A DNA stretch of 64,000 nt from Centroscyllium fabricii. Lineage: Eukaryota. Below are positions 1,975-62,800 of the stretch, one piece after another (the first letter of the stretch is position 1; every line of letters begins with the position of its first letter). The stretch covers positions 156,922,001 to 156,986,000 of the forward strand of contig JBNRSN020000001.1 in NCBI GenBank assembly GCA_051313645.2, given 5' to 3'. Under the pieces are notes generated by a model. That model saw only the letters and a program-made list of their open reading frames with translations. It ran no database searches and was not told the DNA's origin. The position numbers and the translations under genes were made by a program.

Positions 1975-2251
1975 GACAGTGACGTATCGTCAATATCTCT
2001 TAATAAAAGACTGGACGAGTAGTTACCGTAACTATAGGCTTTTAATAACTTACTTTGGAGCTACCCTCCGAACGAACATCAGAACAGAATGAGGGAGCCT
2101 CGGTCAGTCCGCACCTATAAAGGCCTCACCTGGGGGAGGAGTTAGAGGTGTGGCTGACCTAGCTCCACGACAGTACTACAGCAGTATTACAGGGCTGTGT
2201 ATCACACACAGCCAATTGTTGGCAACAATAATTCAGTGGTACATATACATA

Positions 2252-5200
2252 TTATGGGTTACCACATTCACCCCTTCTTGAAAATTTTAAGTCCGGGGGG
2301 GGTGAATGGACCGAGCAGTTCAATATCAGTTTGTCCGGCGGTCGTGTCAGCCTGGAGGACCGCCGGAGTTCCGGTGATGGTTCTTCGTGGTCCGTGCTGC
2401 TCGAGTCCGTTGGTGGTGACAGCGGCTCTGGTGCCGTGGTTTCGGATGGTGATGGTCTCAGATGGTCCGAGCTATCGGAGTGGTGGTCTTGGGCTGGCCA
2501 CGGCTGGGGCTCTGGAAACCTCGGAGGCCATCGTAGGTGTAGGGGGTGTTCTGGATACTGTGGCTGGGCGGGCTGCTGGCCGACCAGGGGCTCTGCTGCG
2601 GTGTTTCCTGCGGGCGCCAGGTCCCTAATTGAAACGGTGTCCTCACGCCCGTCCGGGAACCGTACAAACGCGTATTGCGGGTTCGCATGCAGGAGCTGCA
2701 CCTTGTCCACCAGGGGGTCGGTCTTGTGGCCACGGATGTGTCTCCTAAGGAAGACCGGCCCCGGTGTTGTGAGCCATGGAGGAAGAGCTGTCCCCGAAGT
2801 CGACTTCCTGGGAAAAGCAAAAATCAAATCATGAGGGGTGGCGTTAGTGGCCGTACACAGGAGAGAGCGTATAGAATGCAGCGCGTCTGGGAGGACTGCC
2901 TGCCAATGGGCCACTGGAAGGCCTCTGGACTTCAGAGCCAGGGTGACCGCCTTCCAGATGATCCCATTCTCCCTTTCTACCTGGCCGTTCCCCCGGGGGT
3001 TATAACTGGTCGTTCTGCTCGTGGCAACCCCTTTCTGGAGCAGAAACTGACGCAGTTCATCGCTCATGAACGATGACCCCCGGTCGCTATGGATGTGGCT
3101 GGGGAGACCAAAAATGGCGAACAGCGTGGTGAAGTGTTTTATCACCGTTGCGCTCGTCATATCTGCGCAGGGGAAGGCGAAGGGGAAGCGGGAGAACTCG
3201 TCTACGAACGTGAGGAAGTATGAGTTGCGGTCGGTGGTGGGGAGGGGGCCTTTGAAGTCCACGCTGAGACGTTCAAAGGGGCGGGTGGCCTTAATGAGGT
3301 GCACCGTGTCTGGCCGGAAAAATTGGGGTTTGCACTCGGCGCAAACAGGGCACTCTCGGGTCATAGCCTTGATCTCCGTGATGGAGTAGGGGAGGCTACG
3401 GGATCTAACGAAGTGGGCGAGTCTGGTGACACCCGGGTGGCAAAGGCAGTCGTGGAGGTCCTTCAGCCGGTCTAGCTGGGCACTGGCGCAGGTTCCCCTG
3501 GACAGTGCGTCCGGGGTTTCATTGAGTTTGCCTGGTCGGTAAAGAATGTCGTACTCGTAAGTCGAGAGTTCGATCCGCCACCGCAGGATCTTATCATTCT
3601 TGATCTTACCCTTCTGTTTATTATTAAACATAAACGCCACCGACCGTTGGTCGGTGAGAAGGGTAAAATGCTTACCGGCCAGGTAATGACGCCAGTAGCG
3701 CACGGCCTCCACGATGGCCTGGGCCTCCTTTTCCACTGCAGAGTGGCGAGTTTCGGGTCCCTGTAGGGTGCGGGAGAAAAACGCTACGGGCCTGCCTGCC
3801 TGATTCAGGGTGGCAGCAAGGGCGAAGTCCGAAGCGTCGCTCTCCACCTGGAAGGGAATGGATTCATCAACAGCGAGCATGGTCGCCTTGATGATGTCTT
3901 CCTTTATCCGGGCGAATGCCGTTTGGGCTTCTACCGAAAAGGGGGAACACGGCAGCCTTGAGGAGTGGTCTAGCCTTGTCCGCGAACTGTGGGACCCATT
4001 GTGCGTAATAGGAGAAAACTCCTAGGCATCTCCTCAAGGCTTTAGGGTTGTGAGGTAGGGGCAGTTCTTGAAAGGGTCGCATACGCTGTGGGTCGGGGCC
4101 GAGGACCCCGTTTTCCACCACGTATCCGAGGATGGCAAGCCGGTCTGTATTAAAGACACATTTGTCTTTGTTATACGTGAGGTCCAGCTTGTCCGCCGTG
4201 TCGAAGAATTTGGCCAGATTGGCATCGTGGTCCTGCTGGTCGTGGCCGCAGATGGTCACGTTGTCCAGGTAAGGGAAAGTGGCCTGCAACTCGTTCTGGT
4301 CAACCATGCGGTCCATCTCCCTTTGCAACACTGACACTCCGTTGGTCACGCCGAAGGGGACCCGGAGGAAGTGGTAGAGCCGACCGTTCGCCTCGAAGGC
4401 GGTGTAGGGGCGGTCGGCTTTCCGGATCGGGAGTTGGTGATACGCCGACTTAAGGTCGATCGTGGAGAACACCTTATATTGGGCGATCTGGTTGACCATT
4501 TCCGAGATGCGGGGGAGGGGGTAGGCGTCGAGCCCGGTGTAGCGGTTGATAGTCTGGCTGTAATCGATCACCAGCCGCTGTTTCTCGCCAGACTTCACCA
4601 CTACGACCTGGGCCCACCAGGGGCTGGTGCTGGCTTCAATTATCCCCTCCTTCAGCATACGCCCGACCTCCGACCTGATAAACGTGCGATCCCCCACACT
4701 GTACCGCCGACTCTTGGTAGCAATAGGTTTGCACTTGGGGTCGAGGTTGGCGAACAGTGAGGGGGGGTCGATTTTCAGGGTGGAGAGGCCGCAGGCCGGG
4801 CTCCGCTTTGGGAAGGGACTGTCCCGGCTACTGACGGTGAGGGGGGGCAAGGTCCCGCCGAACTCCATTGTCACGCTCTTGAGGTGGCACTGGAAATCGA
4901 GACCTAGTAAGGCTGGGGCACACAACTGCTGGAGGGTGTACAATTTAAAATTACGGTACACGCACCCCTTGACTGTGAGCGTGACGGAGCAGTAGCCGGT
5001 GACGTCCGCGGTGTGGGACTTTGAAGCAAGGGAGACTTGGTAATTCGTGGGCAGGATCTGCAGTCCGCAGCGCTGCACTGTATCGGGGTGCACAAAGCTC
5101 TCCGTGCTTCCAGTGTCAAATAGGCAATCGATAATATTGCCGTTTATTTTAATAGGCGTTATCGAATTCGACAGAGTGTGTGGCCTGTCCTGGTCCACTC

Positions 5201-6521: not shown

Positions 6522-6607
6522 TTCAAAATTTTTAAGTTATTAAAATTGACGTATCGTCAATATCTCTTAATAAAAGACTGGACGAGTAGTTACCGTAACT
6601 ATAGGCT

Positions 6608-6852
6608 TGTGGCGGTACGCCCACGGGGACATCGAATCCGCCACGGAGACTCCGCGGAGCAAAGCCCCGCTCATCCGGGTGACGCGACGACGTCATCACG
6701 TCGGCCGACACGATGACGTCACCAACCGCGGGACCGTTTAAATATGCCTGTCTCGAGTGGTTCAGTCTCTTTCTTGTTTTGTACTAGTGATTAAAGCTGT
6801 GTTTTTCTCTAGCTCTGGCTCACGTGTGGTTCCTAGGCCTGCCGGCGCTACA
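6608..6852 (+). mobile_element. Solo LTR of a CsRn1-type Gypsy family inserted in the 5' LTR of A
   Basis: TGTGGCG...GCTACA with 4-bp TSD GGCT. Shares TGTGGCG..ACGCCCA and AACCGCGGGACC..TTTAAATA with the LTR at 55550-55827. Confidence 0.88.
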
Positions 6853-7104
6853 GGCTTTTAATAACTTACTTTGGAGCTACCCTCCGAACGAACATCAGAA
6901 CAGAATGAGGGAGCCTCGGTCAGTCCGCACCTATAAAGGCCTCACCTGGGGGAGGGGTTAGAGGTGTGGCTGACCTGGCTCCACGACAGTATTACAGCAG
7001 TATTACAGGGCTGTGTATCACACACAGCCAATTGTTGGCAACAATAATTCAGTGGTACATATACATATTATGGGTTACCACAGACAGTAACACAATTCAC
7101 TATG

Positions 7105-13109: not shown

Positions 13110-16100
13110 TGTGGTAAACCACTGTTTATATATGTTTGTACCTGTATACATTGTGTGTGTGACCTCCATTGTTTGTACATAGTCTTTCATGTATAGCTTC
13201 TCCGGGCATGCCCGTGCTGACCCCGACTGTGGCTCCTCCTCCCCGGACCCAGGTATAAAGGCGACTGTCTCCCTCCCCCAATCATTCTGGGATCAGTCGA
13301 CTAGCATGGGCATGCTCATGTCTTAGTGAATAAAAGCCTTTAGTTCACTCCTCAACTTCTCGTCTCTGAAGTTATTGAAAAGGCATCAATTTTATTCACT
13401 AAGTTTGCATCATGGAGCAAATGCTGAAACCTGCGACGTTAGAACTAGATCCCCAAGCGCCAGGTGCCTCTAACACTTTTACGCACTGGTTCTCCTGCTT
13501 TGAGGCATACCTCGAAGCCTCCGCCGCGATCGTCCAGGTGGACCGGGACAAACTGCGCCTCCTCAATGCCCGGGTGGGCCCTCAGGTGTACTCGATCATC
13601 GCGGACGCTACGTCCTACACCGAGGCGGTCAGAATCTTGGAGGCCGAATACACCCGGGCACCTAACGTGGTCTACGCCAGACACCTCCTGGTCACCCGAA
13701 AGCAGCAACCCGGGGAATCGAGCGTGGAGTTCCTGCGAGCGCTGAGAGTCCTCTGCCGGGCCTGCAATTGCAGAGCACAGACGGCCGTTGTGCACGCTGA
13801 AAATCTCATCAGGGACGCCTACATCGCCGGCCTCAGGTCAGACTATATCAGGCAGAGACTGTTGGAAAAGGATGGCCTGGACCTGCAGGCGACGGTAGAG
13901 CTTGCGAACTCACTGGACCTGGCGTCCCATAATATGGCCGCCTACAACTCTGACCACGCGGGCACATCGCGGACGCTGCCATCTTGGACGCAGCTGGCCA
14001 CATCGCGACCCGTGGACGAGCTGACAGCGGCGACAACCTCGAAAGGCCCGAAATGTTATTTCTGCGGCCAGGCCCAGCACCCCAGACGGAATTGCCCGGC
14101 AAGGGACGCGACCTGTTCCAAGTGCGGGAAGAAGGGCCACTACGCCAAGGTATGCAGAGCGGCAGCGCAATCGACCCCTAAACCCAGCAGCGCCGCATGT
14201 GGCCCGTGGCGTCAGCCATCTTGGACACAGCCGGCAGCACCATCTTGCACACAGCCCGCCGCGTGGGCGCCCGCGCCATCTTGGACCCAGCCCGCCGCGC
14301 CATCTTGGACACAGCCCGCCGCGTGGGGGCAGCCATCTTGGGACCAGGCCCCAGACCCCTCCACCGACCCGACGGACCCGATCCTGGCCTCAATCACCCT
14401 CGACCAAGACAAGAGTCAACCGCTTAGCAAGTCGATGCAAGCAGGTGAATGGCCGAACTACGGACTGCCTTTTCGACAGCGGGAGTACGGCAAGCGTTGT
14501 ACACCCAGATACGCTTCTCCCTGAGGGTAACACCGGCAAGCAAAAAAATCTCTATGACTTCGAGGTCCGAATCAGCGGACGTCTGCGGTCGCTGCGTAGT
14601 GACCCTGACAGTGCGGGGTGTACACTTCCAAAATTTTAAGCTATTCGTGCTGCTGCAGCTCTGCGCTCCCCTACTGCTGGGCCTTGATTTCCAATGCCAC
14701 CTCCAGAGCATGACAATGGCGTACGGTGGGCCTCTTCCCCTGCTCACGGTCAGCAACCAGCACTTCGCACAGTGCCCACAGCACACTACCTGTGGCCTCT
14801 CGACCCTTAAGATCGCCCCTCCCTCACTCTTCGCCAACCTCACCCTGGACTGCAAGCCCGTCGCCACCAAGAGTAGGCGCTACAGTACCGGGGACAGAGA
14901 TTTTATCAAGTCGGAGGTGAAACGGCTTCTGAGGGAAGGGGTCATCGAGGCTAGTAATAGCCCCAGGAGAGCCCAGGTAGTGGTTGTAAAGACCGGAACC
15001 AAGCACCGAATGGTCATTGACTACAGTCAGACCATTAATCGGTTTACACAACTGGACGCGTAACCCCTCCCCCGCATAGCGGACATGGTGAACCAGATCG
15101 CGCAGTATCGGGTCTTCTCAACCATCGATTTAAAATCGGCGTATCACCAGCTCCCCATCCGCCCAGAGGACCGCCACTATACTGCCTTCGAGGCAGACGG
15201 CCGCCTCTATCACTTCCTTAGGGTTCCATTTGGTGTCACTAACGGGGTCTCAGTCTTCCAAAGGGAGATGGACTGAATGGTGGATCAGTACGGACTGCGG
15301 GCCACTTTCCCGTATCTGGATAATGTCACCATCTGCGGCCACGATCAGCAGGACCATGACACCAACCTCCAGAAATTTCTCCACACCGCCAAAACCCTGA
15401 ACCTGACCTATAACACGGAGAAATGTGTGTTCAGGACAACCCGCCTCACCATCCTCGGCTGTGTTGTGGAGAATGGGGTCATCGGTCCCGACCCGGACCG
15501 CATGCGCCCCCTCCTGGAGCTCCCCTTACCCCACTGCCTCAAGGCCCTGAAAAGGTGCCTGGGGTTCTTTTCCTATTATGCCCAGTGGGTCCCCAACTAC
15601 GCGGACAAAGCCCGCCCACTCATTAAATCGACCTCTTTTCCCCTGTCGGCAGAGGCCCGCATGGCCTTCAGCGGCATCAAACAGGACATCGCAAAGGCCG
15701 CGATGCACGCAGTGGACGAATCCATCCCGTTCCAGGTGGAGAGCGATGCGTCCGACTTCGCCCTGGCCGCCACCCTTAACCAGGCGGGCAGACCCGTGGC
15801 CTTCTCGCGCACCCTCCAGGGCCCCGAGACCCGACACTCTTCCGTTGAGAAGGAGGCCCAGGCCATTGTTGAAGCAGTGCGACACTGGAAGCACTACCTG
15901 GCCGGCAAACGATTTACCCTGCTGACTGACCAACGCTCAGTCGCTTTTATGTTCAACAACAAAGAGCGGGGCAAAATCAAGAACGACAAGAAATTGAGGT
16001 GGAGAATCGAACTCTCCGCCTTCAATTATGATATCTTGTACCGGCCTGGGAAATTCAATGAGCCCCCAGATGCCCTGTCCCGCGGTACATGTGCCAGCGC

Positions 16101-17619
16101 ACAAGTAGACCTTCTCCAGACCCTGCACAACGACCTCTGTCACCCGGGGGTCACCAGGTTTGTTCATTTTATTAAGTCCCACAACCTCCCTTACTCCATC
16201 GAGGAGGTCAGGTCCATGACCAAGAACTGCCAGGTCTGTGCAGAGTGCAAGCCGCACTTCTTTCGGCCGGACTGGGCACACCTGATCAAGGCCACCCGCC
16301 CCTTTGAGCGACTCAGCATCGATTTTAAAGGGCCCCTCCCCTCCTCTAACCGCAACGTGTACTTCCTCAATGTCATTGACGAGTACTCACGTTTCCCCTT
16401 TCGCCATCCCCTGCCCAGACATGACCTCCACGGTCATCAGGGCACTGCACAGCATCCCTGTTCGGGTACCCCAGCTACATCCATAGCGACCGGGGTGCCT
16501 CTTTTATGAGTGACGAGCTGCGTCAGTTTCTGCTCGCCAAGTGCATCGCCACGAGCAGGACTACCAGCTATAACCCCCGGGGGAACGGACAGGTGGAGAG
16601 GGAGAACGCCACCATCTGGAAGGCCACCCTATTAGCCCTGCGGTCTAAGGGCCTCCCAGTCTCCCGCTGGCAGGACGTCCTCCCCGAAGCGCTCCACTCC
16701 ATTCGGTCACTTTTATGTATGGCCACTAACGCCACCCCTCACGAGCGACTTTTTGCCTTCCCCAGGAAGTCGGCTTCAGGGACCTCGCTGCCATCTTGGC
16801 TATCGTCCCCGGGACCCGTCCTGCTCCGGAAACACGTGAGGGGCCATAAGTCGGACCCCCAGGTCGAATGGGTCCATCTCCTCCACGCCAACCCCCAGTA
16901 TGCCTACGTGGCGTACCCTGATGGGTGGGAGGACACGGTGTCCATCAAGGACCTGGCACCCTCGGGTGCCCCCGAGACCACCACGACCCACCAGCCCGCA
17001 CCCCACCCCCCCGCCGCCACCCTCCTGGCACCAGCACCACGGTACGTCATACCCCTCAAGGCACCAGCACCACGGTACGCCCACCCAGCACCTACAGGCA
17101 GCACGGTATGGCCCCCAAACCTACGCACCCGCCGGCCGGACGACAAGTGGGAGAGCGCGCCAGTGACCGTCACCGTAAGGGGCCCCGCATCGGAGCAAGC
17201 ACCGCCGCCGATTCCGCCGCCGCTGACTCCGCCGCCAACTGTACGCCGCTCTACAAGGCAGACCAAACCGCCCGAGAGACTGAACCTTTGATGGTTGCCC
17301 AACATCACACCGCCGGACTTTATTTTAAACAAGGGGTGAATGTGGTAAACCACTGTTTATATATGTTTGTACCTGTATGCATTGTGTGTGTGACCTCCAT
17401 TGTTTGTACATAGTCTTCCATGTATAGCTTGTCCGGGCATGCCCGTGCTGACCCCGCCTGTGGCTCCTCCTCCCCGGACCCAGGTATAAAGGCGACTGTC
17501 TCCCTCCCCCAATCATTCTGGGATCAGTCGACTAGCATGGGCATGCTCATGTCATAGTGAATAAAAGCCTTTAGTTCACTCCTCAACTTCTCGTCTCTGA
17601 AGTTATTGATAAGGCATCA
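13110..17619 (+). mobile_element. Full-length Ty3/Gypsy element B (Mag-like)
   Basis: 279-bp LTRs at 13110-13388 and 17341-17619 with about 6 mismatches. TSD CTCAC. PPT AAGGGGTGAA. Confidence 0.95.
13412..17291 (+). pseudogene. gag-pol of element B, frameshifted and with stops
   Basis: Gag with CYFCGQAQHPRRNCPARDATCSKCGKKGHYAKVC; LFDSGS; YLDN; RNase H and integrase split over several ORFs. Confidence 0.92.
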
Positions 17620-18826: not shown

Positions 18827-19210
18827 ATAGAAACTAGGAGCAGGAGTAGGCCATTCGGCCCTTCGAGCCTGCTCCGCCATTCAATGAGATCATGGCTGAT
18901 CATCCAAACCCAGCAGCCCGCCCCTGCCCTCTCCCCATATCCCTCGATCCCTACCGAGCCTACATCGACACCCTATCCCCGTAACCCAACATATTCAATC
19001 CCCCTAACACTAAGGGTCAATTTATCATGGCCAATCAACCTAACCCGCACATCTTTGGACTGTGGGAGGAAACCGGAGCACCCGGAGGAAACCCACGCAG
19101 ACACGGGGAGAATGTGCAAACTCCACACAGATAGTACCCGAGGCTGGATTTGAACCCGGGTCTCCAGTGCTGTGAGACAACAGTGCTAACCACTGTGCCA
19201 CCGTGCCACC
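18827..19210 (-). mobile_element. HE1-type V-SINE
   Basis: tRNA-derived head with A box TGGCACAGTGG and B box GGTTCAAATCC. V-domain GAGTTTGCACATTCTCCCCGTGTCTGCGTGGG. CR1-derived tail. Confidence 0.9.
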
Positions 19211-19591
19211 CATAATGTAGATATAAATAATGTAATATGCCTTTGTAGTCCAGTTTGTTATTCGAAAATAGAAGCAAAGTAGTATTTTTTCAGTGCAAAA
19301 TCTTAATACAGTACACTGCTCTCGAAAACTCCTCCAGTGGGGGGAATTTTCATGTAATGGCGGGAAACTGGCAGAAATTGGGCGGGCCGGGTTTTTGGCC
19401 TGCCCAATTAAGTGGCGCGGATTCCCACGCAATTTTCATGCAACCATCCAATTAATTCCCCACATGTGGGAAGCCTTCCCAATCACCGATTTCCAGTCAG
19501 AAAGTCGCACAGTATGACGTCAGGATTCGGGTTTTCTTTAAAACAACAGCTCTCCTCCTGCACTGCTCAGAGCTCTGAATCCTTCAACAGG

Positions 19592-21600
19592 ATGGCAGAG
19601 CGTGAGGGTGCTGCAGCGGGCAGCGCCAGGAGACGGCCCGCCCCCAAATTTGATGATGCATCCCTCGATGCATTGCTCGAGGGGGCAACTACCCATAGGG
19701 AGGTTCTCTTCCCCTCGTCAGGGAGGAAGAGACCTCCCTCACAGACCAAGGCTGCATGGAAGCAGGTGGCTGAGGGGGTCAACTCCTTGGGCGCAACACC
19801 CTTGACCTTCATCGCACTGCCAGAGTAAGTATTAATCTCCCCTCACCCTCAAACTCATCCCCCTCACCTCTCCTCACCACAACTTCTCTTCACCTCTACC
19901 TTCCTCCACATCCCACTTGCTCATCACCTCCAAGCAACCTTATGCATTCTCCCTCTCTATCTATGCTCACACTCACAGTACTTTCCCTCCATTCAGCCCT
20001 CACACTCCCTCTCACTCTCATGCTTGCTGCACATCTGGAAGCACACGGGAGAGCCTTTGGTCTTGCAGGCTCACTGCATCTTTGTCACCCTACAGCAAAC
20101 TTTGCTGCTCACTCGCTGCTACAACTCCTTCCTTCTCACTCAACCTCCACTTCTCTCCCTCATTGCAGGAAAAGACAGCCGCCAACAAGGGGCACAGCGC
20201 CGGGACCGGAGGAGGACCCCCCAGCATCCAGCAGCTCACCACCTGGGAAGAGGCAGTGCTGGACCTCGTTGGGGAGGGGCAAGCCCCGGGTGTGGGTGAT
20301 GGCGAAGCAGGCAGGCAATCTGGAGCTGGTGACAGCATGGTTTAATTATGTATCTTAAAACTAACATGAGACTGGCACAATGAATGTAAAAGCACTGCAG
20401 AGGCAGCTCTGCTCAGCTCCTGAATGCTATCTGTATGTAATCTTGCTGACATATCTCTAACCTCTGCCTTTACTGCCCCACAGAGCCAGCCGCAGCTGGA
20501 CGCCCAAGCAGAGCTGAGGACGAGGCCGCCCCTGCCCAGTCCTCAGAGGAACCTGCCACCTCTGAGGGTGCACCGTCAGCACCACAGACTCCACCCGGCA
20601 CCAGCGCAGATACTAGCACCTCGGTGGGCCCCCCTAGAGCTACAGATAACTTGTCACTGGGTGATTCAGACAGCACTAGTGAGCGTCAGCAGATTGTGGA
20701 GACAGGGACAGTAGTGCAGGGTCCTAGTCGGAGGGCGCATGACTCTGGCAGCTTAGCTGAGCTGCATGTAGACACAGCGCCTTTGGATCCATCAGGCAGA
20801 GGACACATGATGGGACTCCAGACACAGATGCAGGAGTCTCTGACAGGTTTTGTCTCCCAGGTAGCTACGAGTGTCATGCGAATGGAGGAGTCTGTCGCAA
20901 GCATGAGAAGCAACCTTGCGGAGTCAGTGGCGCATGATCGCATCACCATGGAAAGGATGGCAACCACCATGGAAAGAATGTCGAGCACGATGGAAAGGGT
21001 GGCGACCACCATGGATAGGATAGCGACCGTGGACGAGAGGATGGCCACGGCCATCGAGCACATAAGTCGCCAAGTCACCAGTCTTTCGAAGACATGGGCA
21101 CTGCACACAATAGATACACATCTCCTGAGCAGCGAGTGGCATCTATTGAGCAGATGACCCAGACCTTCCTGGAAGCCACTCTGAGTAGGACTTTCACTTC
21201 AGAAACGGGTCCCCATGGCCCCCCTGAAGTGCAGCAAGGTGCTAATCAGCCACTTGCTGGCGCTAAGGGGGAGGTGACCCATGAGAGGGAGGTTGGTGGT
21301 GCAGCTCAAGGAGGTGGGGGCTCCTCTCCAAGTGTTCCCACGTCCACACCACTGCAGAGCCCTCAGTCAGAGGCCCGCCGGAGTCCCCATGCGCCTGAGA
21401 TGGAAGTCTCATACCCTGCGCAGCCGCAGGAGCAGCAGACTGGTAGCGAGATCCCACCACCTCGCCGCCCCAGAGGACGCCCGCCAAACGTGTCCACACA
21501 GGAGCAGCAGGGCAATCAGCAGGGGACCTCCACATCTGCTGACACCACAGATATAGCACTACGTAGGAGCACTCGTAGAATAACCAGTAAGCACCCTTAG
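19592..21600 (+). pseudogene. Harbinger Myb/SANT DNA-binding protein gene, 3 exons (about 19592-19824, 20169-20328, 20484-21600), frameshifted
   Basis: RPAPKFDDASLDALLEG..REVLF..TKAAWKQVAEGVNS is Myb_DNA-bind_5-like. EKTAANK..TGGGPP..LTTWEEAVL follows. GT-AG sites match the positions in H2. Confidence 0.8.
20948..21052 (+). repeat. 21-bp heptad repeat (MERMATT-like x5)
   Basis: MERMATT MERMSST MERVATT MDRIATV DERMATA in ORF 20624-21157. Confidence 0.85.
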
Positions 21601-22475
21601 GCACAACGGGAGTCACTTGGGTGTTCGTGTAAGTTAGGTCTACCAAATCAGTGGTCACACAGCAGACCACTGAGGTGCCTCCTGATGCAGTTGTCATGTC
21701 TGACATCTTGCGAATGCCCCTTCCACATTGACACCTTATGCAGGCTGGGCAGCAATTGGGCAGGCCTCACAGATATGCAACGATGCTGACGCAACATGGA
21801 AGAAGGACTTGCAGCAGGACGAATGAGTTTCCACAGCACAGTGCAGCTGAATGTTTAGCAGTGAAGGTCCTTGAAACCGGCCTACCCTCATGGGGACGCA
21901 CACCAGCAAACAGAGGGACTGCATGACCGACATGTGGACCAAAGGATGACCAGGTTAAATGAACAAGCCACCTGATGTTTTCGCTACAGCAGCAAACACG
22001 CCTCAGTGCTGAACTTTTACAGGAACAAAACCTTAAACCGATGGAGGTGGCCAAAGAAAAGATGCGCCAACTGTCCAAAGTACCCACGCATCCAACATCA
22101 TCTGGCTTCAAATGGACCCTCACAGCACCTGACCCTGATGGAATGGCCAAGGAGCCATGGTGCCAGCATGCCTCAGCACTGAAACATCAGACAAGATCAG
22201 GTGGGTGAAGAACCACCAGACATCGACCCTCACCGCCCTCCACTACTGCTGCCTCATGTGCGGGTGCGCTGCCCTGGTTTGTCATTATGTGTCACTCTTG
22301 AAAAGGGAGGGGCAGTTCGTGAGAGGGGGGAACATGATTGACAATGGATATGAAGTTGCAACTTCAAAAGTGGACTGGCGGAGGTGCAGCATTGCTGATA
22401 ATGACATTTTGACTGTTTCAACCTGCATGTCTGCATCTGAGATGCCTGGAACATCATTAATGTAGTGAATCATAA

Positions 22476-22874
22476 ACATAGACATAGAAGATAGGAGCAG
22501 GAGTAGGCCATTCGGCCCTTCGAGCCTGCTCCGCCATTCAATGAGATCATGGCTGATCATCCAAACCCAGTACCCTGTCCCTGCCATCTCCCCATATCCC
22601 TCGATCCCTATCGAGCCTGCATCGACACATATCCCACCCTATCACCGTAACCCCACATATTCAATCCCCCTAACAGTAAGGATCAATTTATCCTGGCCAA
22701 TCAACCTAACCCGCACATCTTTGGACTGTGGGAGGAAACCGGAGCACCCGGAGGAAACCCACGCAGACACGGGGAGAATGTGCAAACTCCACACAGATAG
22801 TACCCGAGGCTGGATTTGAACCCGGGTCTCCAGTGCTGTGAGGCAACAGTGCTAACCGCTGTGCCACCGTGCCA
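22476..22874 (-). mobile_element. HE1-type V-SINE inserted inside H1
   Basis: Closely similar to the copy at 18827-19210. Confidence 0.9.
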
Positions 22875-23038
22875 ACTGATAAGTGCTGATCATCAGTTGA
22901 ACAACCCTGCATGTGGCCATGTTTGCTTAATGTATGTACTAAATAGCATGTTGCAGTTGCAACCTTTAATGTTTCTGTGTTCATTATTGCATGTGATGGT
23001 TGGGTGGCACCATGTTCATCAAAGGAATGTGTGGTGCG

Positions 23039-23407
23039 TCAGGGGCGTGGCTGGGGTCGAGCGGCAGCAACCCCGTCCTCCTCCTCCTGTACCTCCTCCT
23101 CTTCCTCTTCCTCCTCCTCATCTGAGGACGGTATGCGAGGAGGCAGGTCTTGGTGAGGAGGTTGCAAGCCATGGTGCTGGGCCATGTTGTGAAGTTGACA
23201 GCATACCAGTACCATTGTGGAGACCCTGTTTGGGGGGTATCTTCTGCGGTGACGTCCTCGGATGCGCCGATGCCTTCTGGCCCATGCTGCCCCCGGAGGG
23301 TCCGCAGGAGCGTCAGGCTCCTGGTGTGGCTGTTGCTGCTGTAGCCGCATCTGCTCCTGGTAGAGATCATGCAATCTCAAAAAGGGAAGGAAGAAAACGG
23401 CTCCCAT
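23039..23407 (-). pseudogene. Harbinger transposase remnant lacking the DDE core
   Basis: RRRYPPNRV joined to STMVLVCCQLHNMA plus the acidic tail. This equals the N- and C-termini of the H2 transposase. Confidence 0.85.
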
Positions 23408-24823: not shown

Positions 24824-25614
24824 CATAAAAGATCATCTAGAAAGTTGCTATCTACTTCTGCTTTATAAGTATACCAAGCTTTTTAGTAAAATTCAGTTCC
24901 CAGGCTTCCCTCATTCATATCCGAAATATATGAAGGTGAACAAATGCCGAACACTGGTTAAAAAGTGAAAGGTGTAAGGAACACTGAGGTCTACTGTTAA
25001 CTTTGATGTTTTATAAAACTTATAGCTACCCAGTGATGGAATACCCAGTGATGTAGTCCTGTATTGTTTGGCAAGCCAGAGAAATACCCACTTCTTATCC
25101 CTGTACTCAGTACAATCCAAAGATGGAGAAGACTTGTGCCAGAGTTAACTTCATTCGCTATCCATCCCAATTACAACTGCTTCTAACTGCATGTTTTCAG
25201 AAGGGTTTCAGAGCTCATCACCAGAAGAAAAAATGGATAGTCCCTTTCCCAACTACACCTGGCCTCCCATCGCTGGCCTATATCCCTGCAGAGTAGCTTT
25301 TCCCTTGCTTACCGTGGTCAGTGTATAAAAATATGGCTCATTAAAAGGTTAATAAAAACAAGTGTTATATAAAAGCTGTTTAACTTTGTACATACCCAAG
25401 CTGCAGATCTATGGTATCTATAAAGCACATAGCTTTATTTTGCCACTTACATGTATGTCATCCATAGTGCTTATACATAGTTAACCTGTATTTCTTTCAC
25501 TTTTTTTTAACCTCTTATTAAGTTATCTATTTCAGCTGATCTACATAAAGCTTTCCGGTAAGTAGAGCAAAAAAGGCTGGGGAAGAAGCTAGTTGTAGAA
25601 TGCCAAGTGCTGGT

Positions 25615-27254
25615 TGTGGTAAACCACTATGTATATATTTGTATCATATCCATGGCCTGTAGTATTGTGTATACAGTTCTCTGTGTACTGCTTGTCTGGG
25701 CATGCCCGTGCTGACTCCACCTGTGACTCCTCCTCCCAGGACAGGTATAAAGGTAACTGTCTCCCTCCCCCCGATCATTCCGGGAGCAGTCGACTAGCTG
25801 GGGCATGCCCAACCTTTAGCGAATAAAAGCCTTTATTCACCACGTAACTTCTCGTTTCTGAGGTTATTGATAAGGTATCAATTTTATAAGCTAAATTTAA
25901 TCATGGAGACCATGCTAAAACCAGCGATGTTAGAACTGGATCCCCAAACACCAGGCGCCTCTAACACGTTTACGCACTGGTTCAACTGCTTCGAGGCATA
26001 CCTCGAAGCCACCGCGGCGATCGTCCAGACGGAAAGGGACAAGCTGCGCCTTCTCAACGCCCGGGTGGGCCCCCAGGTGTACTCAATAATCGCAGACGCT
26101 ACGTCCTACACTGAGGTGGTCCGAATCCTGAAGGCCGAGTATACCCGGGCACCGAACATCATCCACGCCAGACACCTTCTGGCCACCAGAAAGCAACAAC
26201 CCGGGGAATCGAGCGTGGAGTTCCTACGAGCACTGAGAGTCCTCTGCCGGGCCTGCAACTGTAAGTCACAGTCAGCCTTGGTGCACTCTGAAAGCCTCAT
26301 CAGGGACGCTTATGTCACTGGCCTCAGGTCCAATTACATTCGCCAGAGACTGTTGGAGCAGAATGGCATGGACCTGCAGGCGACAATCGAACTTGGGAAT
26401 GCGCTGGACTTGGCGTCCCATAATATGGCCGCTTACTCGGCCGACCACGCGGGCCATAAGTCTGACCCCCTGGTCGAACGGGTCCACCTGCACGCCAACC
26501 CCCAGTACGCCTACGTGGCGTACCCTGACAGGAGGGAGGATACGGTGTCCATCAAGGACCTGGCACCCTCGGGTGCCCCCGAGACCAGTACGACCCATCA
26601 GCCCGCAGCCCCCCCCCCCCTGCATACCACCACCTTTGGGGCACCAGCACCACGGTATGTCATACCCCTCGAGGCGCCGGCACCAGCACCACGTTACGCC
26701 CACCCAGCACCTGCAGGCAGCACGGTATGGCCCCCTAACCTACGCACCTGCCAGCCGGATGACGAATGGGAGAGCGCGCCAGTGATTGTTACCGCAAGGG
26801 GCCCCGCATCGGATCAAACGCTCTCACCGACCCCGCCGTCGCCGACTCCACCGCCAACGGTGCGCCCGCCGACTCCACCGCCAGCGGTGCGCCGCTCGAC
26901 AAGGCAGACCAGGCCGCCCGACAGACTTAACATTTAACGACTGCAAAGCATTCGCCCCGCCGGACTTTATTTTTTAACAAGGGGTGAATGTGGTAAACCA
27001 CTATGTATATATTTGTATCATATCCATGGCCTGTAGTATTGTGTATATAGTTCTCTGTGTACTGTTTATCTGGGCATGTCCGTGCTGACTCCGCCTGTGA
27101 CTCCTCCTCCCAGGACAGGTATAAAGGTAACTGTCTCCCTCCCCCCGATCATTCCGGGAGCAGTCGACTAGCTGGGGCATGCCCAAGCTTTAGCGAATAA
27201 AAGCCTTTATTCACCACGTAACTTCTCGTTTCTGAGGTTATTGATAAGGTATCA
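25615..27254 (+). mobile_element. Miniature 1.64-kb non-autonomous Gypsy element C (B-related)
   Basis: 266-bp LTRs at 25615-25880 and 26989-27254, TSD CTGGT, PPT present. Protease, RT, RNase H and the integrase core are absent. Confidence 0.95.
25903..26937 (+). CDS. Open 344-aa fusion ORF: Gag N-terminal domain plus integrase C-terminus and Pro-rich tail
   Basis: METMLKPAMLELDP..HNMAAYSADHA joined to GHKSDPLVERVHLHANPQYAYV..VRRSTRQTRPPDRLNI*, with no stops. Confidence 0.75.
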   Translation: METMLKPAMLELDPQTPGASNTFTHWFNCFEAYLEATAAIVQTERDKLRLLNARVGPQVYSIIADATSYTEVVRILKAEYTRAPNIIHARHLLATRKQQPGESSVEFLRALRVLCRACNCKSQSALVHSESLIRDAYVTGLRSNYIRQRLLEQNGMDLQATIELGNALDLASHNMAAYSADHAGHKSDPLVERVHLHANPQYAYVAYPDRREDTVSIKDLAPSGAPETSTTHQPAAPPPLHTTTFGAPAPRYVIPLEAPAPAPRYAHPAPAGSTVWPPNLRTCQPDDEWESAPVIVTARGPASDQTLSPTPPSPTPPPTVRPPTPPPAVRRSTRQTRPPDRLNI

Positions 27255-37436: not shown

Positions 37437-40400
37437 TGATGCATGATCAATCACAATGAGTCGACGGGATTAAGTAATTGAGGCTTTAATTAACTAAGAA
37501 CAGAAGTACAGGTCTTATCGCTCTCTGGTCCTGGAATGCCATGAGGTAAACATGGCTGCCACCTTTATACTACAGTCTGTGGGTGGAGCCCGGAGGCGGA
37601 GCCGGCTGAGGCATCCCAGGTAGATACCGGTGGGGACAAAAGAGGTAACAAGGACATAACTATATACAGCACAGTAAGTAACAAGGAGATAACTATATAC
37701 AGCACAGTATTAGTGGGAAACAGTATTACTGGTTTACCACATTCACCCCTCGTTTTAAGATTGAGTCTGGCTGGGTGAAGTGGTTCTGCCGGGGGCAGAA
37801 TAAGAAAGTTTATCGGAGGGTCTGGTCTCCCTCCGCGACCGGTGCAGCCCTGGCTGCAGTGCGGGATCCTCGGGCAAGGTGGTCCTCATCGTCGGAGGTG
37901 ACGCAACAGTCACCTGGAGGTCGTGCATCATCGGATCCCGGGTTGCTGGCGTACCGTCTACAGGGGCTAGAGAAAAAGAGGGTAACAAAGGTGCGTCGAG
38001 AGTTATGGTGGGGGGGTGGAAAATGGTGGTCTCAGGGGCGCCCGAGGGCGCAAGGTCTCTAATGGAGACCGTGTCCTCCCGCCCGTCTGGGAACGCCACG
38101 TAGGCGTATTGGGGGTTGGCGTGGAGGAGCTATACCCTTTCGACCAGGGGGTCCGTCTTATGGCCCCTCACATGCTTCCGAAGTAGGATGGTCCCTGGTG
38201 ACGTCAGCCACGATGGTAGCGAGGTCCCCGAGGTGGACTTCCTAGGGAAGGAAAACCTCTTGTGAGGGGTAGCATTGGTCGCAGTGCAGAGCAGTGACCG
38301 AATGGAGTGGAGTGCATCAGGGAGGACCTCCTGCCAGCGGGAGATTGGGAGGCCCCTAGACCGCAGGGCTAGAAGAGCGGCCTTCCAGACCGTCCCATTC
38401 TCCCTCTCAACCTGTCCATTCCCCCGGGGGTTGCAGCTGTTGGTCCTGCTCGTTGCAACTCCTTTTGCGAGCAGGTACTGGCGCAGCTCGTCACTCAAAC
38501 GAGGAACCCTGGTCACTATGTATGTAGTTGGGGAGGCCGAACATGGTGAAAATGCTGTGCAGGCACTTGATGACCGTGGCTGCGGTCATGTCGGGGCTAG
38601 GGATGGCGAAGTGGAAACGTGAGTACTCATCAATGATGGTAAGAAAGTACACGTTGCGGTAGGAGGAGGGGAGGGGCCCTTTGAAGTCGGCACTCAGGCG
38701 CTCAAAAGGGTGGGTGGCCTTTACCAGGTTAGCTTTGTTTGGCCTGTAGAAGTGCGGTTTGCACTCAGCGCAGATCGGGCAGCTCCTGGTAACGGCCCGG
38801 ACTTCCGCAACGGAGTAAGGCAGGTTGCGGGATTTGACAAAATGGAAAAGACAGGTAACTCCCGGGTGGCAGAGGTTGTTGTGGAGAGAATGCAAACTAT
38901 CCACTTGTGCGCTGGCACAGGTTCCACGAGATAGAGCATCCGGGGGCTCATTGAGTTTGCCGGGCCGGTACAAGATGTCATAATTGTAGGTGGACAGCTC
39001 AAACCTCCACCTCAGGATCTTGTCGTTTTTGATCTTGCCCCGCTGTTTATTATTAAACATAAAAGCCACTGAACGCTGGTCAGTGAGCAGGGTGAATCTT
39101 CTACCGGCCAGGTAATGCCTCCAGTGCCGCACCGCTTCCACGATGGCCTGGGCTTCTTTTTCCACCGAGGAGTGTCTGATTTCACGGCCTTGGAGGGTAC
39201 GGGAAAAGAAGGCCACTGGTCTCCCCGCCTGATTGAGGGTAGCGGCCAGAGCAAAAAGTCAGAGGCATCGCTTTCCACCTGGAACGGGGTGGATTCATCC
39301 ACGGCATGCATGGTCGCCTTCGCGATGTCGGACTTGATGCGCTCAAAGGCTACGCGAGCCTCGTCCACCAGGGGGAAAGAGGTGGATTTGATGCTTTGTC
39401 AGCGTAAATAGGGACCCACTGGGCGCAGTATGAGAAAAAGCCCAGGCACCTCTTCAGGGACTTGAGACTGTGGGGGAGGGGGAGTTCCATGTGGGGGCAC
39501 ATGCGTTCGGGGTCAGGACCGATGATCCCATTTTCCATGACACATCCCAGGATGGCGAGCCGGGTGGTGCGGAAAATGCATTTCTGCTTGTTGTACGTGA
39601 GATTAAGGATTTGGACGTCATGGCCGCAGACGGTGATATTATCCAAGTTGGGGAACGTAGCCAGCAGCCCGTTTTGGTTCACCATACGGTCCATCTCCCG
39701 TTGGAAGACTGATACACCGTTGGTGACGCCGAAGGGGACCCTGAGGAAATGGTAAAGACGGCCGTTCGCCTCAAAGGCGGTGTACTGGCGGTCTTCGGGG
39801 CGGATGGGGAGCTGGTGGTATGCAGACTTTAAGTCGATCGTGGAGAACGCCCGGTACTGCGCAATCTGGTTGACCATGTCAGAAATGCGAAGTAGGGGTT
39901 ATGCGTCCAGCTGTGTAAAACGGTTTATGGTATGGGCTGTAGTCAATGACTAGGCGGTGTTTCTCGCCGGTCTTAACGACTATAACTTGGGCTCTCCAGG
40001 GGCAGTTGCTAGCCTCAATAACCCCCTTCCTCAGGAGTCGCTGAACCTCAGATTTAATAAAAAATCTATCCTCCATACTGTAGCGCCTGCTCTTAGTGGC
40101 TATGGGCTTGCAGTCTGGGGTGAGATTAGTGAACAGTGGAGGAGGGGCGACCTTGAGAGTCGAGAGGCTGCAAACAGTGCGTGGCTGGTGATTTGGAAAC
40201 TGCTGGCTACAAACAGTGAGGGGGGGAGCGGCCCACTGTACTTCATTGTGACACTGTCGAGGTGGCTCTGGAAGTCTAGCCCGAGCAGGATGGCAGCGCA
40301 GAGGTGAGGGAGGATAAAAAGTTTTAAATTGCTGCAGACTGTGCCCCGCACCGACAATGTAACGACGCAGTATCGCCGACATCCGCCCTTTGAGTTTTAG

Positions 40401-44241: not shown

Positions 44242-47200
44242 TGTGGTAATCATGTATATAACCACTGTATATAGTTGCTGACTACCTGTGTAATACTGTA
44301 GGCTAGGACAGCCACACCCCTAACTCCTCCCCTCAGGTCGGAGTATATAGGCGAGTGCTGACCTGCCCCCACTCATTCTTCACCTTGACCTCATCAGGAG
44401 ACCAGCTCCATTCTTAGTTAATAAAAGCCTGTAGTTTAGGCAACTACTCGTCTTTGTGTGATTAATTGACGATACGTCAATTTTATTAACTAAATTTTTA
44501 AACGTGCAGAGCAATGCAGTGAAACCGGATCGCCTCGATGTCAATCCTCAGGCGCCCGAAGCTGCTAACGACTTTGAACACTGGTTTGGCCTGGTCGAGG
44601 CCTACATGAAGGCCGTAAAGGCAACGAGTGATGAGGACAAACTACAGGTACTCTCATCACGGATCAGCGGCCGGGTGTACTCCTTTATCAGAGGCCTCAA
44701 GACTTACGAGGAAGCGGTCAAGAAACTAAAGGACAGCTACATGCGCCCGATCCACTCAGTCTACGCCAGGCATGTACTGGTGACCAGAAGACAACGACTC
44801 GGTGAGTCTAATGAACAATACCTGCTTGCGCTCCAAGTCCTCGTACGGGCCTGCGACTGCAAGGCAAGGACAGCGGAGGAAGAGGCGAATCTTCTAGTCC
44901 ACGATGCCTACGTGGCAGGACTCAGGTCCAGCCAGGCCCGCCAGTGGCTGCTGGAGCAGGAGACACTGTCGCTCAAGTCCGCTGTAACTCTTTCGAATGC
45001 GGTGGACGGGGCGCTTAAGAAGATGGACGCATACAGGGATTACGACTCCCACGCAAGTACACCTGACCCTTGGGCGACAGAGACGGGCCGAGGCCCCCAC
45101 GATGGCAGCGGCGGCTGCGAAGGCGCCGATGGGGCACAGATGCTACTTCTGCGGCCAAGGAAAGCACCCACGGGTGCAGTGCCCCGTGAAGAATACGACC
45201 TGCGCGCGGTGCGCGAAGAAGGGGCACTACGCTAAGGCGTGAAAATCCAGCCCGGCCTCCACCTCCAGATCCAACAGCGCGGCCTGTGAGAGCAGCGAGG
45301 CCACTCCGTGGCTACAGGTACGGTGTTGCAGCGCGACCCAGCAGCGGTCAGCTGGGGGTAAATCCCGGGTGCCTCCATCCCCTTTAAATGTACGGCGGAG
45401 GCCTGCCGCGCGTGCGGCACAGGCGCCGCCATCCCAAATGCGACTGCGACCGGCCATGTGCGAACCCCCGGCGCCGCCATCTTGCCCAGTGGTCAACCGC
45501 GTGCGAACCACGGGCGCCGCCATCTTGTCCACAGCGGCCGGCCGCGTGCGAACCACGGGCGCCGCCATCTTGTCCACAGCGGTCAGCCGCGTGCGAACCA
45601 CGGGCACCGCCATCTTGTCCACAGCGGTCGGCCACGTGCGAACCACGGGCGCCACCATCTTGTCCACAGCGGCCAGCCGCGTGCGAACCACGGGCACCGC
45701 CATCTTGTTCACAGCAGCCAGCCGCGTGCGAACCACGGGCGCCGCCATCTTGTCCACAGCGCTCAGCCGCGTGCAAACCACGGGCGCCGCCATCTTGTTC
45801 ACAGCAGCCGGACACGTGCACATCGCCAGCGCCGCCATCTTCTGAGCGGCCATCTTGACAAACGCCCCGGCCGGGGCCCCCACACACACACATACACTTG
45901 GGCCTCAGCCACCGTCGATCAGGCTAGGCCGCACACCTTGTCCAACTCCATGATGGGGATAAAGGTGGACGGGCACGTCACCAACTGCCTGTTCGACACC
46001 AGTAGCACAGAGAGCTTCATACACCCCGACACAGTGCAGCGCTACGCACTACAGACCCAGCCCACGCACTACAAAATCTCCCTTGCCTCAAAGTCCCACA
46101 CGGCGGACATCACCGGCTACTGCAACGTCATGCTCACGATCAGGGACCGCATTTACCGCAACTTTAAGTTGTACGTACTCCACCAGCTGTGCGCCCCAGT
46201 ATTACTGGGACTGGATTTCCAATGTCACCTGAAGAGCGTGACGATGGATTTCGGTGGAACCCTGGCCCCCCTCACTGTTAGTAGCCGGGACAATCCCAAC
46301 TTAACGCGGAGCTCGACTTGCGGCCTGTCCACATTAAAAGTCGACCCCCCCTCTCGACCCCAAATGCAAGCCCATTGCTACCAAAAGGTCGGTGTTACAG
46401 TGCAGTGGACCGGGCGTTTATGAGGTTGGAGGTCGAGCACATGCTGAAAGAAGGGATCTTGAGGCCAGCACCAGCCCCTGGCGGGCCCAGGTCGTGGTGG
46501 TCAACAGGCGAGAAACTGCGCATGGTCATTGACTATAGCCAGACAATCAACCGCTACACCGGGCTTGACGCCTACCCCCTCCCCCGCATCTCGGATATGG
46601 TGAACCAGATCGCCCAGTACAAGGTCTTTTCCACAATCGACCTCAAGTCGGCGTATCACCAACTCCCCATCCGGAACTCCGACCACCGGTACACCGCCTT
46701 CGAGGCGAACGGCAGGCTTTACCACTTCCTCCGGGTCCCCTTCGGTGTCACCAACGGGGTGTCGGTGTTCCAGAGGGAGATGGACCGCATGGTTGACCAG
46801 AATGGGTTGCAGGCCACTTTCCCCTACCTGGACGACGTGACCATCTGCGGCCATGACCAGCAGGACCACGATGCCAACCTCGCCAAATTCCTGCACACGG
46901 CGAAACGGCTGGACCTAACATACAATAAAGACAAATGTGTCTTTAGTACGGACCGGCTCGCTATCCTCGGATACGTGGTGGAAAACGGGGTCCTTGGCCC
47001 AGATCCACAGCATATGCGCCCCTTGCAAGAGCTGCCCTTACCTCACAACCCCAAAGCCCTGAGGAGATGTCTAGTGTTCTTTTCTTATTACGCGCAATGG
47101 GTCCCCCAGTACGCGGAAAAGGCCAGACCTCTCCTCAAGGCTGGCGTCTTCCCCCTCTCGGCAGAAGCCCAAACGGCATTCGCTCGGATCAAGGAAGACA

Positions 47201-55828: not shown

Positions 55829-55840
55829 TGGTGACCCCGA
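55829..55840 (+). promoter_or_regulatory. tRNA-Trp primer-binding site of G
   Basis: TGGTGACCCCGA one nt after the 5' LTR, complementary to the tRNA-Trp 3' end as in CsRn1-clade elements. Confidence 0.88.
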
Positions 55841-59814: not shown

Positions 59815-62800
59815 GGCGACACGGGCAGAGCATAGACGGCCCGCCACAACACCATCTTTCGAACCACGGAACAGCACACAACACCTGCCGGCCACAACAC
59901 CAGGCCATTGCGGCAAACTGTCGGACATTCTGTGTGTAATCGAAATGTGTGTCTGCTCTCCTTTTTGTCTCCCTCTCCTCTAGGAAACTACACTTCCCCT
60001 CGCGGATTCTGGGGGGGAGCTGTGTGGCGACACGCCCACCGGCAGCCACGAACCCGCGCTGGGAAGGCTGCAAAGCGGCCCCGCCCGTCGGAGGACGCAC
60101 GGACTTCCCCGACGTGATGACGTCACCAGGTGGCCAGCCGGCAGTGACGTCCCCAACCGCGGGACCTTTAAATACCTGAGCGCCAGGTGGCTCAGCCTCT
60201 TCTCTCCACCTGGCCCTAGTTGTAACAAGTAGTATAATAAAAACTCTCCTTCTAACCTCTCTGTGTCCAGCGTGGTCCTTCAGCCTTGCAGGCCTCAACA
60301 ATACGTCAATTTTATTAACTAAGAAAATTTGAAATGGAGAGCGGTGCGGTAAAGCCAGAAAAGCTGGACACCAGTCCACAGGACCCAGCCGCCGCCACCA
60401 CGTTCGAACACTGGTTCGGTCTCCTGGAGGCCTATATGGACGCCGCCAAGGCTACAACTGACGGGAACAAGTTGCAAGTTCTCAGGTCTAGGATCTCCAG
60501 CCGAGTATTCTCCCTCATCCGAGATGCCAAAACCTACCCAGTGGCAGTGGAAAAGCTGAGGAAATGCTACGAGCGCCCGGTCCATTCGGTCTACGCCAGA
60601 CATGTGCTCGCGACCAGACCACAACTACCGGGTGAGACAAACGAACAATTTGAGCAAGCACCCCAGGCCCTGGTACGGGTCTGTGGCTGCCAACCACGGA
60701 CAGCAGAGGAGGAGGCGAATCTCCTCGTCTGTGATGCCTACGTAACAGGCCTAAGGTGCGTTGAAGCCCGCCAGCGGCTGCTGGAGAAAGACTCTCTGAC
60801 TTTAGAAGAGGCGATTTCTATATCGAACTCTGTAGAAGGGGCACGCAACAAGCTGCAGGCGTACAGTGGCACAAACCCGCAGGCCTACGACATGTGGGCC
60901 GCGCCACAACGGGCCCAGGCCTGGGCAGCACCACAACGGGTCGAGACCCCCACGATGGCTGCGACAGCTGCAAAGGCAGACAAACGGTGCTACTTCTGCT
61001 GCCAGGGACTGCACCCACGAGCGAGATGCCCAGCGAGGACCGCGACCTGAGAGAGGTGCTCCAAAAAGGGACACTACGCGAAGGCCTGTAGATCAGCACC
61101 AGCAGCGCCCAACTCCAGGTACAACAGCGCAGCCTGTGAAAGCTCCGCCAGGACTCAGGTAAGCTGCAATAGCAGCGCGATCCAGCGACGGTCCGGGGGT
61201 AGAAGAAAAGCGCCCCCATCTCCCACCCTGATGCGGCAAAGGCCGGCTGCACCCACGGCACGCCAAGCTCAGCCACGGCCGGCCATGCGCGACCCCCCAA
61301 CGCCAGCAGCAGCACACCCAGCACGGCCCGCTGCGTGCGAACCACGGGCACCGCCAACCCAGCCACCGCGGCCCACTGCATGCGAACCACGGGCACCGCC
61401 AACGCGCTCACAGCGGTCAGCCGCGTGCGAACCACGGGCGCCGCCATCTTGTCTCCAGCGGCCCACCATGTGCGACCCCTTGGCGCCGCCATCTTGTCTC
61501 CAGCGGCCCGCCATGTGCGACCCCCCCAGCGCCGCCATCTTGTCTCCAGCGCGCCGCCATGTGCGAGCCATGGGCGCCGCCATCTTGTGTACAGCCCCAA
61601 CCAGCAGGGGGCCCCCACACACAAAGACACACTTCGGCCTCAGCCATACCTAAAGTGGACCAGGCTAGGCCACACAACCTATCAAACCCGATCAAAATCA
61701 ACGGCCACGTTACTAATTGCCTGTTCGACACTGGAAGCACAGAGAGCTTTGTTCACCCTGATACAGCGCAGCGCTACGGACTGCAGATCCTGCCCACGCG
61801 CTACCAAGTCTCCCTTGCTTCACAGTCCCACACCGCGGACGTCACCGGCTACTGCTCCGTCACGCTCACAGTCAAGGGTTGTGTGTACCGTAACTTTAAG
61901 TTGTACACCCTCAAGCAGTTGTGTGCCCCAGCCTTACTAGGTCTGGATTTCCAGTGCCACCTCAAGAGCGTGACAATGGAGTTCGGCGGGACCTTGCCCC
62001 CCCCCTCACCGTCAGTAGCCGGGACAGTCCCTTCCCAAAGCGGAGCCCAGCCTGCGGCCTCTCCACCCTGAAAATCGACCCCCTCTCACTGTTCGCCAAC
62101 CTCGACCCCAACTGCAAACCTATTGCTACTAAGAGTCGGCGGTACAGTGTGGGGGATCGCACGTTTATCAGGTCGGAGGTCGGGCGTATGCTGAAGGAGG
62201 GGATAATTGAAGCCAGCACCAGCCCCTGGCGGGCCCAGGTAGTAGTGGTGAAGACTGGCGAGAAACAGCGGCTGGTTATCGACTACAGCCAGACCATTAA
62301 CCGCTACACCGGGCTCGACGCCTACCCCCTTCCCCGCATCTCGGACATGGTCAACCAGATCGCCCAATATAAGGTGTTCTCCACGATCGACCTTAAGTCG
62401 GCGTATCACCAACTCCCGATCCGGAAAGCCGACCGCCCGTACACCGCCTTCGAGGTAATCGGTCGGCTCTACCACTTCCTCCGGGTCCCCTTCGGCGTGA
62501 CCAACGGAGTGTCAGTGTTCCAACGGGAGATGGACCGCATGGTTGACCAGAACGAGTTGCGGGCCACCTTCCCTTACCTGGACAATGTGACCATCTGCGG
62601 CCATGACCAGCAGGACCACGATGCCAATCTGGCCAAATTCCTTGATACGGCGGAAAAGCTGGACCTTACGTATAACAAGGACAAATGTGTGTTTAATACA
62701 GACCGGCTCGCCATCCTCGGATACGTGGTGGAGAACGGGGTCCTCGGCCCCGACCCACAGCGTATGCGCCCCCTACAAGAACTGCCCCTACCTCACAACC

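Follow-up and report, generated by a model that had tools for sequence, protein, structure and literature searches.

Can a reverse transcriptase (RT) maintain a retrotransposon family when the second aspartate of its YxDD motif has been replaced by asparagine? The role of the third RT aspartate is a long-standing question, and changing it disables retroviral RT. The question is raised by a Ty3/Gypsy element of 4,510 bp (copy B, 13110..17619, +) in the window, which is the whole 64,000-nucleotide stretch of Centroscyllium fabricii DNA that was analysed. A six-frame scan located its motif C, which reads YLDN (TAT CTG GAT AAT, 15313..15324, +), with the Asn codon at 15322-15324 (+). In an alignment made via a copy of the same subfamily, this Asn occupies the position of the second Asp of the Ty3 YLDD. 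The site therefore differs from the canonical RT site with three aspartates and YxDD, in that it combines two invariant aspartates with an Asn. A sequence-only reading of the window had proposed that these elements moved recently with, or alongside, a YxDN enzyme, and that the change may be linked to an unusual mode of priming.

Copy B has the order gag-PR-RT-RH-IN and contains stops and frame changes, including a stop 13 codons upstream of motif C. It is flanked by the 5-bp target duplication CTCAC. The 279-bp 5' LTR (TGTGG...CATCA) lies at 13110..13388 (+), and the 3' LTR at 17341..17619 (+) is 2.2% diverged from it, as determined by LTR comparison. A polypurine tract is located at 17326..17340 (+). 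Motif B is a variant, PFGVTNG followed by V (15226..15246, +), whereas outgroup Gypsy RTs mostly have PFGLxNAP. A TGG tRNA site is absent after the 5' LTR of copy B. The primer-site position directly 3' of this LTR (13390..13403, +) is the exact complement of a 14-nt LTR arm (13322..13335, +), which spans the AATAAA signal.

Related copies are found elsewhere in the window. Motif C reads YLDN in copy A (TAC CTG GAC AAC, 4260..4271, −) and copy E (TAC CTG GAC AAT, 62575..62586, +), NLDN in copy D (AAC TTG GAT AAT, 39638..39649, −) and YLDD in copy F (TAC CTG GAC GAC, 46825..46836, +). In the six-frame scan, these codons and those of copy B were exactly as the sequence-only reading had given them. 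Its statement that only copy F has GAC GAC is correct within the family, but two unrelated Gypsy RTs of the window, at 57610 (+) and 29537 (−), also read YLDD. In copy A (~1980-7082, −; target duplication CTGTC) the two LTRs match at 98.3% of 235 nt, and a single frame change lies between the RT palm and RNase H. On its frames, as in homologues, the Pfam domains for protease, RT, RNase H and integrase follow the Gypsy order. Copy D (~37437-41826, −) is a decayed element with LTRs 4.6% apart. Copy F (~44242-48083, +) has lost its 3' end, and copy E (+) begins at 55300, is split by an unrelated Gypsy element (55550-60300) and extends past the window end. The LTR divergence of 1-2% given earlier thus describes copies A and B but not copy D; for copies E and F, the window contains no 3' LTR. 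Copy C (25604..27254, +) is a member of the same clade with an internal deletion, which retains gag and the integrase end and has no RT. The RT-bearing copies share the motif context PFGVTNGVSxFQREMD...TFP[motif]VTICG, and in a 183-nt stretch that ends at motif C they are 77-95% identical. All five RT-bearing copies (A, B, D, E and F) are broken by stops or frame changes; therefore, the window alone is silent on the residue carried by source elements.

The 7.2-Gb genome was searched with the exact pattern FPYLD-x-[VI]TICG, which matched 209,678 times with Asn, 283 times with Asp and 438 times with Ser. The reversed control pattern had no genome match, and the motif is therefore present far beyond chance. 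A looser context pattern gave 229,065 Asn versus 330 Asp across the genome. An Asp-bearing source family was sought genome-wide by both patterns, and none was seen. The Asp copies are scattered among the silent haplotypes that the Asn copies also have; the nearest sampled Asn copy is 94.5-98% identical for 10 of 13 Asp copies, and the other three are without a close relative in the sample. When the YLDD sequence of copy F itself was used as the query, the 29 loci parsed out of 30 comprised 26 YLDN and three YLDD, copy F included. Asp is at the level of random point mutation; therefore, the YLDD of copy F is sporadic, one of the 283 Asn-to-Asp point mutants. Asn is the family state in the window family. 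By our estimate, the ~230,000 RT copies would amount to ~1 Gb if they are near full length (~4.5 kb each), and a branch with YLDN may make up roughly one seventh of a vertebrate genome. Asn is also found in another abundant family, distantly related within the clade, which has FPYLDNITVAG (e.g. C1:744833 and C1:1395824).

Selection and age were examined on fetched copies. The 80 loci comprised 40 Asn loci at the beginning of the first contig, of which 20 had been chosen for varied codons, as well as 20 long-frame loci and 20 Asp loci. For dN/dS, 55 of 81 copies were kept, 23 being left out for stops and three for register, and the analysis used 42 Asn copies in which the 175-codon RT core is unbroken. 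Between pairs of these, dN/dS was 0.15 at ≥95% identity, 0.13 and 0.10 in the intermediate bins and 0.05 at <80%, where 227 of 469 pairs were saturated and excluded from the ratio. LTR divergence in 13 Asn copies with clean target duplications is 0-5.4%, with a median of 2.2%. An open frame of at least 1,190 aa is present in 4 of 40 unselected Asn loci, and a strict automatic test detected a matching 5-bp target duplication in 16 of the 80 fetched loci. Purifying selection acts on the source lineages, whose copies are young. Because dN/dS is 0.05-0.15 and the LTRs are young, the YLDN enzyme most likely works. We infer its catalytic activity from these sequences and hold with considerable confidence that a working YLDN RT copied the window family itself. 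The N-versus-D tally and the dN/dS analysis had both been proposed in the sequence-only reading, and their outcome supports its suggestion that the elements moved recently by means of a YxDN enzyme: purifying selection is seen in the Asn copies, and the opposite picture that it had envisaged, with YLDD source copies and neutrally evolving YLDN lineages, was found in neither part. Annotation pipelines that score YxDN copies as dead would misjudge ~230,000 RT copies here.

The same data bear on the proposal that the YLDN enzyme is dead and that the family was mobilised in trans by a YxDD enzyme. Such a history would suit the broken state of all five RT-bearing window copies and the presence in the same window of unrelated YLDD Gypsy elements with identical LTRs, and the engineered D211N mutant of Ty1 is reported to fail in transposition (PMC2148107). 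However, the RT core is under purifying selection across subfamilies with near-saturated silent sites, and the motif A Asp is invariant, as is the first Asp in motif C. Moreover, no Asp family of the clade was seen in the genome by pattern counts, and the YLDD neighbour shows only ~30% protein identity and differs in its primer site. Mobilisation in trans is highly improbable, and we reject it on the basis of the purifying selection and the genome counts.

The distribution of the residue was then considered among homologues. Two protein searches gave 270 proteins with 299 RT domains, 11 proteins being left out for partial cover, and 298 of the 299 domains have Asp or Asn at the site. The 218 domains with at least 42% identity comprise 133 Asn, 84 Asp and one Tyr, although 133 of 218 is not an unbiased Asn share because the search query carried Asn. 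All 81 of the more distant Gypsy RT domains have Asp. In the tree, the ≥42%-identity set is one strongly supported branch, which places the window family, as judged by sequence, in a single pan-animal Gypsy clade. The nearest named proteins, from rays and a catshark, are 70-83% identical. On the Asn side, the named sources include four genera of cartilaginous fish, corals and an anemone, as well as a sea slug, two flatworms and Trichinella; on the Asp side, they include a damselfly, a spider and Trichuris. A collection of viral contigs searched for relatives contained none. All 119 full-length polyproteins retain the Asp of motif A, the first Asp of motif C and the four RNase H acids, and the protease Asp and two integrase acids are each present in 118; the third catalytic site is Asn in 82 and Asp in 37.

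The Asn/Asp site was taken out of the alignment before tree building. The tree requires 16 Asn/Asp changes, of which 12 are forced by strong branches, against 31.6 with shuffled labels; the wider RT-only tree requires 24, of which eight are forced. The residue appears to have switched at least 8-12 times between families, and the number and direction of the switches are approximate because the FastTree trees have many open branches. In clusters at 90%, the motif-bearing members have Asp in 51 of 51 cases in six clusters and Asn in 36 of 36 in four clusters, 45 of the 137 listed members having given no motif match, mostly as fragments. At least three of the four all-Asn clusters are coral families. 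These patterns indicate that Asn or Asp is a family-level state, fixed within families, and not damage to single copies. The deepest branches of the clade mostly have Asp, with NAV in motif B, which suggests that Asp is ancestral, the tree being weakly resolved there. Further motif C variants, HVGN (twice), YLHN and YLEN, occur in metagenome loci L174, L175, L150 and L168; these members are probably decayed, and HVGN is present in two contigs.

Decay could also be invoked for the window family, with repeated CpG deamination turning GAC GAY into GAC AAY in dead copies. That route fits the 25 of 42 Asn copies in which GAC precedes the Asn codon, but GAT precedes AAY in the other 17 of 42, and 28 of 42 still have the next CpG (AAC GT). 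In addition, Asn stands at 99.9% in copies that are only ~2% diverged and is fixed in every one of the 36 members of the four clusters. The fixation counts, the GAT-AAY codons and the surviving neighbour CpG refute this explanation, to which we assign practically no probability.

A working YLDN enzyme has to be reconciled with what is known of the active site. The third Asp is most likely dispensable in this lineage because the family with Asn kept copying itself. In the mechanism that we favour, the two invariant aspartates (motif A and the first of motif C) would hold the metals, and an intact RNase H is retained. The third position would need the shape of Asp or Asn, and the side-chain oxygen of Asn could keep the geometry without the charge. 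This would agree with a clade site that takes Asp or Asn, essentially nothing else, and switches repeatedly between families. Permissive changes in the fingers and template grip may have made the third Asp dispensable before Asn arose, and Asn would give a usable rate in vivo.

The closest experimental parallel is D211N of Ty1, which is the same Asp-to-Asn change of the second motif C Asp but was engineered, whereas the change here is natural and present in ~230,000 copies. According to the report on this mutant, polymerase activity is kept in vitro with a 223-fold lower kpol and a preference for Mn, transposition is lost and 5-10% of it is regained via RNase H suppressors, and polymerases need two or three active-site acids (PMC2148107). 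The reduction in kpol and the loss of transposition imply that compensation is needed. The background on which the sequence-only reading had drawn, a nearly invariant second Asp whose change to Asn cripples the enzyme, was overstated, since the Ty1 mutant still polymerises in vitro, albeit without transposition (PMC2148107), and nematode belpaoviruses carry YVDN as a lineage trait (PMC9094657).

Several near-fixed changes distinguish the clade from outgroups: P to Q (−116), R to S (−99), T to A (−43), AP to GV (−26, −25) and S to G (+5). At −26, the Asn domains have 129 Gly and four Ala, and the Asp domains have 61 Gly and 19 Ala, a split that may fit a permissive background; this step is put forward as putative because the independent-pair tests were not significant. 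Among the best 18 of 1,471 columns tested for a compensating residue, those listed were not significant by independent pairs, and the same holds for motif B Gly and for Glu at −19 against Asn. The predicted RT-RNase H domain has a normal fold (pLDDT 87).

As a refinement of the working-enzyme reading, Asn may now be preferred, and not merely tolerated, in the lineage leading here, either through a co-adapted active site (possibly involving Glu −19 in FQREMD) or through a slower polymerase that balances RNase H. The Asp count (283) does not exceed that of Ser (438), a presumably dead state, which indicates that no Asp sub-lineage was amplified. In the same 42 copies, 10 of 14 synonymous A/G sites vary, and RT positions −42 and +26 swap Asn and Asp freely. 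However, the remaining four of the 14 synonymous A/G sites are also invariant, so a single fixed site can arise by chance. Glu at −19 occurs in 44 Asn domains and three Asp domains, but 89 Asn domains are without it and the association fails the independent-pair test noted above. Furthermore, CpG mutation at GAC GAY would shift a neutral site toward Asn. A preference for Asn is put forward tentatively, as less likely than not. A broader proposal is that the clade, an old one, re-tuned its polymerase site, with the third carboxylate serving as a two-state switch. Asn would have been selected in some branches, including that of this genome, RT speed, metal use or fidelity would differ between the two states, and the solution would have arisen independently in Gypsy and BEL/Pao. 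This proposal is speculative and rather unlikely as it stands; if true, nature would have found a way around a change that is lethal in Ty1. The clade supplies Asn and Asp enzymes by the hundred, and its sister families differ at the site, so that the third Asp and the compensating residues are open to direct tests.

The suggested connection with priming can be evaluated from the sequence that follows the 5' LTR. In the window family, this sequence is ATTT rather than TGG, and ~11-15 nt pair with the AATAAA region of the element's own LTR. The pairing keeps matching changes between subfamilies. A primer-site scan of metagenome contigs covered 51 of 80 loci, 48 of which were usable. An LTR complement of at least 11 nt right after the 5' LTR was found in 31 of 39 Asn loci, many of which are copies from one assembly, in five of nine Asp loci and in none of 138 control sites. 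Of the five Asp loci, L133, L154, L157 and L188 are convincing, whereas L139 is a doubtful case. Among the four Asp loci lacking the pairing, three have <120 nt of contig before gag; therefore, their LTR arm may lie off the contig end. Self-priming thus has the appearance of a clade trait that is independent of the Asn/Asp state. An adaptive role of Asn in self-primed reverse transcription would fit the presence of both traits in the window family and the frequency of the pairing in the Asn metagenome loci, against its absence from the controls. However, the Asp loci carry the same LTR-complementary structure, and the primer site looks clade-wide whereas Asn switches on and off. The shared primer site in Asp families largely refutes the link, which we now consider improbable.

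The arrangement resembles that of Tf1/sushi elements, in which the primer site is likewise complementary to the element's own LTR. In these elements the site pairs with the LTR and no tRNA is used, and Tf1 is described as using the first 11 nt of its RNA (PMC7175516). Unlike in Tf1, the arm here covers the AATAAA signal, ~45-60 nt before the LTR end. In copy B (13322-13403 region) and also in loci L111-L190, the arm overlaps the polyadenylation signal; in copy B it lies ~40 nt past a TATA/initiator-like start. The self-complementary arm would thus not be formed by the first bases of the transcript, and the cut that frees the primer would have to differ in geometry from that of Tf1. A chromodomain, which is a trait of the Tf1/sushi chromoviruses, was found neither in the 589-aa RH-IN frame of copy A nor in the Pfam lists of 120 homologues.

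In overall organisation, the family is like Ty3/Gypsy (Metaviridae) elements, with the PR-RT-RH-IN order, TG...CA LTRs, a 5-bp target duplication and a polypurine tract. Ty3 RT (PDB 4OL8) is both the best sequence match (E 1e-47) and the best fold match. The family differs from Ty3 in having YLDN for YLDD, NGV for NAP in motif B and DYSQT for DYRxL, and in having no TGG tRNA primer site. The clade has ORFs of 1,150-1,300 aa, LTRs of 240-320 bp and a twin Cys-His gag. Cigr-1 of Simmen and Bird (2000) reportedly has one ORF of ~1,200 aa, LTRs near 245 bp and a SURL-like gag, and on anatomy the clade may be Cigr-1. The Cigr-1 clade is recorded in Ciona and also in molluscs (PMC6238403); the main text of that article has no mention of a PBS, and the five supplements searched contain no YLDN.

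Natural YxDN is already known in the nematode belpaoviruses Cer7-Cer12 and Atlas, which carry YVDN as a lineage trait and include an unbroken element with identical LTRs (PMC554778, PMC9094657). In the 2005 article, the activity of the belpaovirus YVDN RT was stated to remain to be tested (PMC554778). Belpaoviruses are BEL/Pao elements with env and are confined to nematodes, whereas the clade described here belongs to Ty3/Gypsy, is found in several animal phyla and alternates between Asn and Asp. The pol end adjoins the 3' LTR in the 4.4-5-kb elements, unlike in the env-bearing belpaoviruses. YLDN in Gypsy appears to be new, and its scale and repeated switching are what sets it apart. For Gypsy elements, the literature covered contained no report of YLDN, YxDN or a switching site; this coverage did not extend to most subscription journals, Repbase Reports, GyDB, figure images or bioRxiv supplements, and an alignment figure in one of them may already show YLDN.

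The window also contains other repeats. The unrelated Gypsy element that splits copy E (55550-60300, +) has a DUF7041 gag, YLDD, the tRNA-type primer site TGGTGACCCCGA and a 1,101-aa open frame; its 278-bp LTRs are 100% identical and it is flanked by the 4-bp duplication ATAC. It appears to be CsRn1-like. Its insertion point is in the last bases of the copy E 5' LTR. In the 5' LTR of copy A, a ~240-bp TG...CA insert (window ~6611-6847, −) lies just past the AATAAA-type arm and is probably a solo LTR of another family. Two of the five copies, A and E, are thus interrupted in the same U5 stretch. A proline-rich tandem-repeat spacer between the gag zinc knuckles and the protease (45258-45852, 61253-61595 and 5258-5617) differs in length by subfamily and accounts for the element sizes of 4.4 to 5.3 kb. 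Decayed repeats at 19362-21786, 22984-23851, 42415-43990 and 50240-52624 match Myb_DNA-bind_5 (below cut-off) and DDE_Tnp_4, and are presumably DNA transposons of the PIF/Harbinger type. Finally, a 390-bp repeat without TG...CA ends is present in three copies that are 91-94% alike (18827-19208, 22475-22868 and 28883-29278), and is possibly a LINE 3' end or a SINE.
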